IMG/VR virus record: IMGVR_UViG_2541047944_000004
Coordinates: 1-49,477 of that record
Strand: one strand, 5' to 3'
Origin: a virus
Taxonomy: Duplodnaviria; Heunggongvirae; Uroviricota; Caudoviricetes
DNA: 49,477 nucleotides
The position numbers and the translations under genes were made by a program. Under the pieces are notes generated by a model. The model was not told the origin of the DNA. It ran no database searches and saw only the letters and a list, made by a program, of their open reading frames with translations. This document shows positions 16,782 to 18,197 of this stretch, piece after piece. Numbering within the stretch: position 1 is the first letter of the stretch; each line of letters opens with the position of its first letter.

Positions 16782-16810
16782 ACACAACTTGACACAAAGT
16801 GTTGTTGCGA
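16782..16810 (+). promoter_or_regulatory. Putative late promoter pR' (TTGACA, 17-nt spacer, TGGAAT)
   Basis: Consensus -35 in AT-rich region between Q and tRNAs; -10 is weak. Confidence 0.35.
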
Positions 16811-16895
16811 TTGGAATATTAAATCGTATCATCGAAAACGGTTCTGAGGGGGAACTCTTCTTTGCTCGGTGATATCGCTCCCCTGAAGAACCAAT

Positions 16896-16971
16896 GCCGA
16901 CTTAGCTCAGTAGGTAGAGCAACTGACTTGTAATCAGTAGGTCACCAGTTCGATTCCGGTAGTCGGCACCA
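16896..16971 (+). tRNA. tRNA-Thr (anticodon UGU)
   Basis: Cloverleaf parsed by hand: acceptor GCCGACT/AGTCGGC, D-arm GCTC..GAGC, anticodon stem ACTGA/TCAGT with loop CTTGTAA, T-loop TTCGATT, 3' CCA. Confidence 0.85.
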
Positions 16972-16974
16972 TAT

Positions 16975-17049
16975 GCGGGTATCGTATAATGGCTATTACC
17001 TCAGCCTTCCAGGCTGATGATGCGGGTTCGATTCCCGCTACCCGCTCCA
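16975..17049 (+). tRNA. tRNA-Gly (anticodon UCC)
   Basis: Acceptor GCGGGTA/TACCCGC, anticodon stem TCAGC/GCTGA with loop CTTCCAG, T-loop TTCGATT, 3' CCA; close to recollected E. coli glyT. Confidence 0.85.
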
Positions 17050-17413
17050 GCATTTGAAACAAGCCTTATTGTATTGCGGCACTGGCGTATTTTTTTATTA
17101 CGTGGGAGCAGGTTGTTTTGAAAAAGCATTCTGTTCTCTGGCTATGATTTGAGGCCGGGTGTAGCCTCAGTGCTGATTTTTTACGGCAGCAGAATGGTGC
17201 ATTATCGGTGGAGATTTTGTATTTCCTGGCAGGGTCGGTGATGCATCATTCTGGTGTTGTAAAAGCACCGCAGAGGCGTTCCTCAGGGCGAGGGTGGTTT
17301 AAAGAGTCGGTTTAGCGGGAAACCACAGTATCCATACGGCACGGAATACTTCGGGAGGCACCCGACGCCTCGGTTTAATAACAATTAAAAAATTCATCCC
17401 TTGCATTGACCAA

Positions 17414-17438
17414 CCGCCATATCTGGCGGTTTTTTTTA
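17414..17438 (+). terminator. Rho-independent terminator in late leader (tR'-like)
   Basis: CCGCCAtatcTGGCGG followed by TTTTTTTT. Confidence 0.55.
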
Positions 17439-17763
17439 TTCCTTTCTCAGGACAAAAAAGACACGAGCATCCAGGAATACTCGAGGGACAATGTCCTATG
17501 GATAGCAATTTGCGAGAGGGTGAAAAGTAGCGCGGTCGTCGGATTAAGACCGCGGGACAAAGTCCATGAAGAATAATAAGTATTGGCCCCCTTCCGGGGA
17601 CATGTTCATACTACTAAGCTTCAGAAGTGGTTTAAATCCTCAAATTAACCTTAATTTCCGATAAGTCTTATTTCATTTCTTTGCGCCACATCTGGCGCGC
17701 ATCAAATAACGCCACGCAAAGGGCATCTGCGGATGCTGGTGCTTTTGACGGGGTGTTTTTTAC

Positions 17764-17786
17764 GGGCCGCTGGTGGCCCTTTTTTA
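17764..17786 (+). terminator. Rho-independent terminator immediately upstream of lysis genes
   Basis: GGGCCgctggtGGCCC followed by TTTTTTATTT. Confidence 0.5.
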
Positions 17787-17804
17787 TTTACAGGAGAAAA
17801 AAGT

Positions 17805-18197
17805 ATGTCTGAACCCTTATCCGGTTCCGGCACGGCTGCGGCGCTCGGTGGGGCGACGGTGTACGGGCTGTTTACCGGAACGGATTTCGGGATTGTGTTT
17901 GGTGCGTTCGCCGGGGCGTTATTTGTGGCAACGATGCCGCAGGCGCTTTCAGCCTGGCGTGTGGCGGCGCATTTTCTGGTGTCGTTCATTATCGGCGTGC
18001 TGGGCGCAGAGGTTCTGGCATCCTGGCTGGTAAAGCATACAGAGTTTGACGGTGCACCTGTCGACGCATTGTGTGCAGTACTGGTGTCAGTGGTGTCGGT
18101 GAAGATTCTCTCGTTCATCCACCAGCAGGATATTGCATCACTGGTGTCCGGCCTGTTCTCCCGCCTGCGGGGTGGAGGAGGCGGCAATGTTAAGTAA
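17805..18197 (+). CDS. Putative holin (130 aa membrane protein)
   Basis: AGGAGA RBS; Gly/Ala-rich hydrophobic segments; first gene of lysis cassette preceding endolysin. Confidence 0.55.
   Translation: MSEPLSGSGTAAALGGATVYGLFTGTDFGIVFGAFAGALFVATMPQALSAWRVAAHFLVSFIIGVLGAEVLASWLVKHTEFDGAPVDALCAVLVSVVSVKILSFIHQQDIASLVSGLFSRLRGGGGGNVK

Follow-up and report, generated by a model that had tools for sequence, protein, structure and literature searches.

A conserved and folded RNA leader follows two tRNA genes between a Q-like gene and the lysis cassette of a Rac-type prophage of Escherichia coli

In Shiga toxin (Stx) phages, the region between the late antiterminator gene Q and the lysis genes contains tRNA genes and the toxin genes. 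The annotated order in phage 933W (NC_000924) is Q, pR', qut, two terminators, the promoter pT, ileZ-argN-argO, a terminator, stx2AB, an esterase gene, S and R. In phiP27 (AJ298298) a methylase gene is followed by ileZ, argO, the stx2e A and B genes and a convergent open reading frame (ORF), L27, and the tRNA genes again lie 5' of the cargo. We describe here the corresponding region of a Rac/Qin-type lambdoid prophage of Escherichia coli, contained in IMG/VR record IMGVR_UViG_2541047944_000004. The window is the whole stretch of 49,477 nt that was analysed; coordinates refer to it and to its + strand unless stated otherwise, and homologous loci carry L numbers. The region holds genes for tRNA-Thr(UGU) and tRNA-Gly(UCC) and then a gene-free stretch of 755 nt (17050-17804), which the original prediction had regarded as an empty or vacated cargo site. 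Judged from its conservation and folding, this spacer is a conserved, folded RNA leader and is not empty.

The element order is the same as in 933W. Both have a Q gene, one or more terminators, a separate promoter for the tRNA cluster, a terminator after the tRNAs, variable cargo, and holin and endolysin genes. The window differs from 933W in its tRNAs (Thr and Gly instead of Ile, Arg and Arg), in the family of its Q protein (DUF1133, another Q family) and in the lack of a toxin or esterase gene. In place of the short terminator that follows the tRNAs of 933W, the module in the window has a structure of 215 nt, consisting of two domains that we call D1 and D2. The tRNA promoter showed no homology with pT of 933W or of phiP27. 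With phiP27 the window shares the holin/holin/lysis module and about 100 nt in front of it (17704-17801), which include the terminator t3, but the methylase gene, ileZ, argO, stx2e and L27 of phiP27 stand where the window has its Thr and Gly tRNAs and most of the spacer, and phiP27 is without D1 and D2. The anticodons thus differ from the Ile/Arg sets of the Stx phages (ileZ, argN and argO in 933W; ileZ and argO in phiP27), as the original prediction had noted. As this layout is standard for Stx phages, it does not by itself resolve any open question. No type of element is new: tRNAs under a promoter of their own, terminators in series, a moron slot and small RNAs (sRNAs) of the leader are all known from Stx or other lambdoid phages.

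Such sRNAs from late leaders or moron sites of prophages include StxS (PMC7547250), PasA-D (PMC8550237; 10.64898/2026.05.13.724894) and the convergent EcOnc sRNAs (PMC4104026), and PasA and PasC adjoin holin genes of strain E2348/69 (PMC8550237 table S6). Like these and STnc100, the leader in the window lies between Q/pR' and a holin gene and has intrinsic terminators; some of these sRNAs are convergent, and TerB, DUF3927 and holin genes are near. Unlike them, it is known from sequence alone, it has no sequence or covariance-model similarity to them, and D1-D2 is larger and more structured. Structured RNAs other than tRNAs also occur in or 3' of tRNA units, as we find here: the 'species 1 and 2' RNAs of phage T4 are stable RNAs co-transcribed with phage tRNAs, and 3'ETS-leuZ is a functional spacer of a tRNA operon.

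The spacer ends at 17804 because the ATG of the holin gene is at 17805, not at 17806. Among 5426 complete E. coli genomes, 215 contain at least 80% of the 755 nt, with identities of about 78-98%, and the spacer is present in more than 119 IMG/VR contigs. Near-complete copies among sequenced phages were limited to vB_EcoS-683R6 and SerU-LTIIb, and a scan of species-representative genomes with the sequence pattern of the D2 apex found it only in E. ruysiae. This conservation, together with the covarying + strand RNA in the first 215 nt or so, speaks against the notion of an empty or vacated site.

By BLAST of the variants against the window, the spacer was divided into four blocks. Block A (17050-17263, + strand) holds D1 and D2, and these first ~215 nt of the spacer are almost always linked to tRNA-Gly. 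Block B (17264-17441, + strand) ends in a strong terminator, t2, and is replaced in L010-type loci by a shorter version, likewise ended by a terminator. Block C (17442-17704, no strand assigned) is an exchangeable cassette slot, and block D (17705-17804, + strand) is a constant segment next to the holin gene, with t3 and the ribosome-binding site of the holin. Conservation is high over the whole of blocks A and B. There are also variants without block C (forms of 439-448 nt), with a different block B or with insertions. Among 144 loci with the phage-type tRNA-Gly, the 5' gene was a Q of the DUF1133 family in 45, a methylase in 37 and a Q of the PF06530 family in 3, and the 3' gene was of the holin_8 type in 70 and EssD in 36. 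Since the flanking genes vary in this way, the tRNAs plus leader are a mobile mosaic module.

D1 (17078-17182, + strand) is a cloverleaf-like four-way junction with a U-tract, recognized by folding, by its variants and against shuffled controls. Its closing stem P1 has 7 bp (GGCACUG/CAGUGCU, 17078-17084 and 17168-17174) and surrounds three hairpins; the U-tract (17177-17182) lies 2 nt past this stem. The minimum free energy is -39 kcal/mol (z = -4.8). Seven variants with largely different helix sequences adopt the same shape, and the four-way junction was obtained for 51 of 53 unique D1 variants, compared to about 12% of interior-shuffled controls. A compensatory change was found in P1 of one locus (L157), and U5-8 follows P1 after 1-3 nt in all 135 copies. 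Consensus folding in block A yielded energies of -35.8 (D1) and -40.0 kcal/mol for the + strand and of -12.2 (D1) and -9.9 kcal/mol for the - strand, and the D1 consensus contains 219 G·U cells but only 4 A·C cells. The hundreds of G·U cells, the near absence of A·C and the stronger + strand fold show D1-D2 to be a structure of the + strand RNA. D1 with its U-tract is probably the terminator or the 3' end structure of the tRNA operon. It has the stem and the U-run of an intrinsic terminator, but the 'loop' is a branched domain of about 85 nt, which is atypical. In 9 loci a plain hairpin with a U-run directly follows tRNA-Gly in place of D1-D2, and D1 can therefore be regarded as positionally equivalent to a terminator. 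A decayed tRNA was also considered for D1 and was rejected, as there was no match to the tRNA model even at E <= 5.

D2 (17183-17260, + strand) is a G·U-rich hairpin of 30 bp, supported by folding and covariation. It consists of a lower stem of 24 bp, an apical stem-loop of 6 bp (17210-17226) and an asymmetric bulge on the 3' side, UGGCAGGG (17227-17234). In the window the hairpin extends over 17178-17265, with -49.3 kcal/mol (z = -5.9) compared to -28 kcal/mol on the - strand; the imperfect inverted repeat that had been seen at 17190-17253 is thus real and larger than supposed. Of 1350 pair cells in 45 distinct sequences, 98% hold standard pairs, while slid-partner controls were 30-59% paired. 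Nineteen of the 24 lower-stem pairs vary, mostly via G·U, and double-sided changes affect 4 pairs (23 cells). Part of the sequences came from a first collection, which was retrieved with the apex as search pattern. A second collection, retrieved by the 3' end of tRNA-Gly only, gave 132 usable loci, in which 101 had the exact apex, 21 had the same D1-D2 with altered apical stems, 1 had a truncated D2 and 9 were the loci with the plain terminator. In the 21 loci the altered apical stems still pair, and the bulge UGGCAGG or a close variant of it is kept.

A search of 17050-17810 against the 4227 families of Rfam 15, STnc100, AgvB, AsxR and Esr41 included, gave no match at the gathering score, the best scores being 12.6-23.6 bits against gathering scores of 41-100. 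STnc100 (18.4 bits; gathering score 47), STnc560 (18.9 bits; 55) and STnc240 were rejected as identities of the RNA, because their scores were far under the threshold and were driven by the terminator. Matches to miRNA families at a permissive threshold reflect only the long hairpin. A text search within one library of papers found no occurrence of the D2 apex sequence.

The two tRNA genes that precede the spacer were called correctly in the original prediction. ARAGORN found exactly two tRNAs in the whole 49.5-kb window, with anticodons TGT and TCC: tRNA-Thr(UGU) at 16896-16971 and tRNA-Gly(UCC) at 16975-17049, both on the + strand, with 73.8 and 61.6 bits in the Rfam tRNA model (RF00005; gathering score 29 bits). 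They are 3 nt (TAT) apart, and this Thr-TAT-Gly spacing was constant in 110 of 110 copies. The tRNA-Thr is identical to K-12 thrU in all 76 positions, and the tRNA-Gly is set apart from K-12 glyT by a compensatory exchange in the acceptor stem (C6U/G66A) and by A38G. Among 140 tRNA-Gly copies from prophages and phages, T6/A66 was found in 133 and the host-type C6/G66 in 6, and A38G (position 17012, in the anticodon loop) was private to the window. With G at position 38 a C32-G38 pair would arise, and decoding might be weakened or changed, although a sequencing error is also conceivable. We rejected an origin by capture of the host thrU-tyrU-glyT-thrT operon with its flanks, since the match is confined to the tRNA bodies and does not extend to the flanks, the promoter or D1. 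In SerU-LTIIb (L003, KU052038, 1122-1197) the first tRNA has the tRNA-Thr body with anticodon TCT and is annotated as Arg, an anticodon switch on a fixed tRNA scaffold. An Arg(UCU)-type tRNA also lies 5' of tRNA-Thr in several IMG/VR loci, and many of its copies have a TTT-containing anticodon loop.

The comparison of codon usage that had been proposed for the late genes gave a divided result. Compared to a sample of 10,500 codons from K-12 core genes, GGA is raised among the Gly codons of the late genes in the window (0.203 versus 0.109, and 0.014 in ribosomal genes), as is GGA+GGG (0.40 versus 0.23). Among the Thr codons ACA is not raised (0.219 versus 0.209), and ACA+ACG make up 0.585 versus 0.43. 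From these figures, codon supplementation is plausible for Gly and marginal for Thr.

It had been assumed that the tRNAs are expressed as part of a Q-controlled leader, and two conserved elements speak against this as their sole source. A sigma70-like promoter, TTGCGA-16 nt-TATCAT (16805-16832, 9 of 12 matches in the promoter scan), precedes the tRNA pair, and an intrinsic-terminator-like hairpin, AACCCGCCATTGAGCGGGTT followed by TTTGTTGTTT (16628-16655, from the terminator scan), lies between Q and this promoter. The aligned equivalents of the promoter are TTGAAA-16-TAATAT or TATTAT in loci that have a methylase gene or a Q of the PF06530 type on the 5' side. In 82 of 117 loci, TTGnnn-16-TAnnnT stands 58-76 nt 5' of tRNA-Thr, and nearly all of the others have a further tRNA or tRNA-like sequence directly 5'. 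The predicted tRNA promoter at 16805-16832 is therefore kept behind three unrelated kinds of upstream sequence. Within an AT-rich tract, at positions of about -60 to -45 relative to this promoter, lies an upstream element, ATTTACA-N4-TTGACA (16779-16794), whose form ATTTAC(A/G)-N4-TTGA(C/T) is common to the loci with Q-DUF1133, a methylase or Q-PF06530. It may be an UP element, a site for a host factor or a Q-binding site; a specific Q site is unlikely because the element is kept beside three different regulators. The hairpin at 16628-16655 is kept in all loci with a DUF1133-type Q, and an analogous one follows the PF06530-type Q of L008. Terminators are annotated at the corresponding place in 933W, and the hairpin may be the tR' at which a short transcript from pR' ends. 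The ~95-120 nt that separate the stop codon of Q from this first terminator (16534-16655) could give rise to a small RNA made constitutively from pR', comparable to lambda 6S or StxS (PMC7547250). We also looked for a Q-dependent pR' with Q-binding and pause elements, taking those of Q21 from 10.1101/651190 for comparison, and obtained two candidates, 16541-16569 and 16789-16832, neither with a complete set of elements. With the order Q, terminator, separate tRNA promoter, tRNAs, terminators and lysis genes matching that of 933W, we consider that the tRNAs are probably also made independently of Q.

The region as a whole is rich in terminators, as the original prediction held: 10 terminator-like sites were found in 16400-18000, compared to 2.0 +/- 1.5 in shuffled sequences. 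The terminator predicted near 17414-17438 is t2 at the end of block B, with the hairpin CCGCCATATCTGGCGG at 17414-17429 and T8 at 17430-17437 (+ strand, terminator scan); its stem and U-tract are conserved and its loop is variable. In block D, t3 (+ strand, from the same scan) has its hairpin at 17764-17779 and U6 at 17780-17785, just 5' of the holin ribosome-binding site AGGAG (17792-17796, + strand). The t3 hairpin is near-invariant, with one stem mismatch in 1 of 9 copies that include loci joined to a different holin, and it is retained across two holin types and in phiP27. At the joint between blocks C and D there is another hairpin, GCGCCACATCTGGCGC (17685-17700), closely similar to the stem-loop of t2, and a similar hairpin stands at the start of the TerB cassette in L143-type loci. 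The hairpin at the joint could mark a hotspot of recombination, or it could be what remains of a terminator.

The interval does lie at the position where relatives carry cargo, namely stx2e in phiP27 and TerB and DUF3927 genes in others. TerB and DUF3927 genes replace block C in L127, and a 194-aa ORF together with the same two genes replaces it in L118. In L005 block C is retained and the TerB and DUF3927 genes stand between C and D. The C/D joint was placed by BLAST at about 17705, adjoining the hairpin at 17685-17700, and stx2e of phiP27 lies inside the wider interval from the tRNAs to block D. The same conserved flanks thus enclose different genes, as is characteristic of a moron or cargo site. 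Because the cargo of the relatives replaces block C or sits at the C/D joint, the real cargo slot is about 17442-17704 (about 260 nt) and not the whole 755 nt. As far as can be read from the window, this slot holds no convincing protein gene. The claim that the stretch is free of convincing ORFs stands, since no ORF of at least 35 aa in 17050-17812 was retained among 38 distinct full-length homologues. A hidden or decayed protein gene in the spacer was rejected on this ground and because the ORFs annotated in relatives are inconsistent. The RefSeq/PGAP annotations place 'hypothetical proteins' in the leader at 2618-3016 of L007, 2682-3095 of L008, 2619-2930 of L010 and 3115-3240 of L009; these are probably spurious, because their frame and extent differ and their translation crosses the t2 sequence.

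The tRNAs, the conservation, the + strand RNA structures, the terminator motifs, the modular joints and the cargo genes of relatives can all be read directly from the sequences compared. We consider it reasonably likely that they belong to the late (lysis) operon leader of a Rac-type lambdoid prophage, built of exchangeable modules and working like that of 933W. In this scheme a terminator comes after the Q-like antiterminator gene, and a dedicated sigma70 promoter would drive tRNA-Thr(UGU) and tRNA-Gly(UCC), so that these tRNAs would be made in the lysogen without Q. Their transcripts would be halted serially by the D1 four-way junction with its U-tract, by t2 and by t3, which would keep the lysis genes silent. 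Upon induction, polymerase modified by Q and coming from an upstream pR' would pass all of the terminators and produce the lysis mRNA, and the read-through would supply extra tRNAs for GGA/GGG and ACA/ACG codons. What we infer here is that the promoter is active, which of the terminators are functional, that Q allows read-through and that D2 may be cleaved. The 5' arm of D2 begins at the end of the D1 U-tract, which itself pairs in the fold of the window, and D2 would therefore form only in read-through transcripts. A structural analogy is found in sib/tI of phage lambda, downstream of int, where a long hairpin is complete only in read-through transcripts and is then a substrate of RNase III; D2, however, lies in a late leader. 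A 30-bp duplex is the kind of structure that RNase III cuts, and D2 would most likely serve in processing or stability, probably as a site for RNase III, and so separate the tRNA precursor from the downstream RNA.

Several points weigh against this explanation. The homologues are closely related and come mostly from Escherichia prophages, so conservation alone is weak evidence. The invariance of the D2 apex is partly circular, because the apex served as search pattern for the first collection. D1 with its large branched 'loop' would be an unusual terminator. RNase III is tied to D2 by length alone, with 24 + 6 bp compared to a criterion of about 20 bp or more of double-stranded RNA. The private A38G may impair the tRNA-Gly of the window, and the enrichment of ACA is negligible against the K-12 sample, which is small. 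In addition, TTGACA at 16789 with the downstream TATCAT could be a pR' with its pause element instead of a tRNA promoter with its upstream element, and the tRNAs would then be products of the Q leader. The alternative built on this last point would have the tRNAs made only as a Q-controlled transcript from a pR' at about 16782-16820, with tR' at 17414-17437 and the rest of the spacer a vacated cargo site that has no function. TTGACA (16789-16794) is indeed a perfect -35, the -10-like TATCAT 33 nt beyond it could serve as a sigma-dependent pause element, and two copies of ACACAA, spaced by 10 bp (16782-16787 and 16792-16797), resemble the two-subsite element of Q21 (10.1101/651190); relatives also carry cargo in this interval. 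However, the -10 of this candidate is poor: TTGACA has no usable -10, as TGGAAT lacks the A at position 2. The arrangement is not kept in the other contexts either, since loci with a methylase or PF06530 gene keep only TTGAAA-16-TAATAT/TATTAT, and the upstream element stands beside three different regulators. The spacer is moreover conserved, structured and covarying, and we regard this alternative as quite unlikely. It is very improbable that D2 with its UGGCAGG bulge is a cis-acting antitermination RNA like put of HK022, which would let transcripts pass t2 and t3 in methylase loci that lack Q. The module does lie behind a DNA methylase gene, with no recognizable Q, in 37 of 144 loci, D2 is located 3' of the promoter and 5' of t2 and t3, and the bulge is kept while the apical stem changes. 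The argument is purely positional, however. The put RNAs are two short stem-loops and D2 is a single hairpin of 30 bp, phiP27 has t3 and the holin without D2, the window has its own Q, and D1-D2 gives way to a plain terminator in 9 loci.

Two further alternatives concern products of the leader itself. The trailer formed by D1, D2 and block B (17050-17437) might be a regulatory RNA that is freed from the tRNA precursor, ends at t2 and acts in trans on RNAs of host or phage, by base pairing or as a sponge, like 3'ETS-leuZ or StxS. This is rather unlikely in our estimate, and it is compatible with the late operon leader, not exclusive of it. Each of the two block B versions finishes with a single-stranded AU-rich stretch and a terminator hairpin with U8, the arrangement seen in Hfq-dependent sRNAs, conservation is high over blocks A and B, and late leaders and moron sites are known sources of sRNAs (PMC7547250; PMC8550237; 10.64898/2026.05.13.724894; PMC4104026). 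On the other hand, the trailer matches no Rfam family and is not similar to PasA, PasC or PasD, and with efficient termination at D1 most transcripts from the nearby promoter would lack D2 and block B. D1-D2 could alternatively be a tRNA-like decoy or a trans-acting RNA. It is doubtful, although conceivable, that D1-D2 is an undescribed prophage RNA family that rides with phage tRNA-Gly as an antitermination-sensitive switch, in which a stop at the D1 U-tract would give tRNAs only. Just as doubtful is the other half of such a switch, in which read-through would complete D2 and its recognition by RNase III or another factor would control the processing and expression of the lysis genes. The slot itself might contain a small gene, and this too is rather improbable. 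It could be a 32-aa protein, MKNNKYWPPSGDMFILLSFRSGLNPQINLNFR (17566-17664, + strand), of equivocal coding status, or a convergent sRNA of about 85-145 nt on the - strand. The ORF is intact in 33 of 38 homologues, with its start kept in all 38, and pN/pS (nonsynonymous to synonymous variation) is 0.45 in frame versus 0.65 and 0.84 off frame. This contrast is far weaker than that of the holin control (0.27 versus 1.5-1.9); moreover, five variants are frameshifted, variable sites are spread 15/11/15 over the codon positions, the putative Shine-Dalgarno sequence is inside a hairpin, and the protein matches no family of Pfam or PHROG and does not occur in a collection of 15 billion proteins. The ORF was not rejected, but its coding signature and the case for it as a real gene are weak. 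The sRNA candidate (17454-17636, - strand) came from the terminator scan and a relaxed promoter scan: promoter-like TTTAAA-17-TAGTAT (17636-17608), with GGTTTAAAT invariant, would give a start at about 17600, and a terminator hairpin (17483-17464, U-run to 17454) one of two possible ends, 17522 or 17454. In position and orientation the candidate is analogous to PasA/PasC and the EcOnc sRNAs. Convergent sRNAs occur at the equivalent position in other prophages (PMC4104026; PMC8550237 table S6), and other variants have different hairpin sequences, with an A-run before them on the + strand. The consensus folds of block C show no strand bias, however, and similarity of the spacer to PasA, PasC and PasD of E2348/69 was dismissed as chance word matches of at most 14 nt, so this candidate is also weak.

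The genes around the leader agree with its assignment to a late operon. The genes 5' of the tRNAs encode, by Pfam and PHROG, a DUF1367 protein, YbcO and a DUF1133 protein. The last of these is the Q-like late antiterminator (15997-16533, + strand; PF06576, 342.8 bits), which has a weak match to PF06530 Phage_antitermQ (28.8 bits, cut-off 26) and belongs to PHROG 753, labelled 'anti-termination protein Q-like'. The lysis cassette (17805-19012, + strand, Pfam and PHROG matches) consists of the holin Phage_holin_8 (17805-18197), a second holin, Phage_holin_3_7 (18187-18465), and an endolysin with GH108 and PG_binding_3 domains (18467-19012). By these assignments the tRNAs and the spacer are flanked by the Q gene on the 5' side and by the lysis cassette on the 3' side, and the sequence of a Q-family gene directly 5', terminators (terminator-like sites at 16628, 17412 and 17764) and then lysis genes is that of a lambdoid late cassette. 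RalA (1557-1735, + strand), DicF (6725-6776, - strand) and sok (14334-14507, + strand) all exceed their Rfam gathering scores; they assign the prophage to the Rac/Qin group and point to two or more toxin-antitoxin loci. Beyond the lysis cassette, a gene for a ParB_N-domain protein and one for a TET-associated glycosyltransferase (TAGT, PF20691) occupy 20289-22002, just 5' of the terminase genes; the pair suggests a possible DNA-modification module. A second variable slot lies 3' of the endolysin gene (19013-20288). It contains eltIIb A/B in SerU-LTIIb (L003), trkG in three loci (L002, L009 and L010) and iss in one (L006), and in the window small unassigned ORFs only, including one of 65 aa with a lipobox-like LVGC (19497-19694).

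What had been taken for an unoccupied stretch beside the phage tRNAs thus contains a conserved, strand-specific RNA structure that is absent from Rfam and is carried by about 4-8% of complete E. coli genomes, among them those of strains used in laboratories and production, such as W. Genome pipelines put 'hypothetical proteins' into this leader that are neither conserved nor consistent in frame. In the widespread modules of the Rac/phiP27 type, the 'stx position' is a narrow slot between two terminators, which may hold stx2e, TerB and DUF3927 genes or, as in the window, only non-coding sequence. This definition of the slot would be useful for reading the maps of prophages and for judging their potential for toxin conversion.

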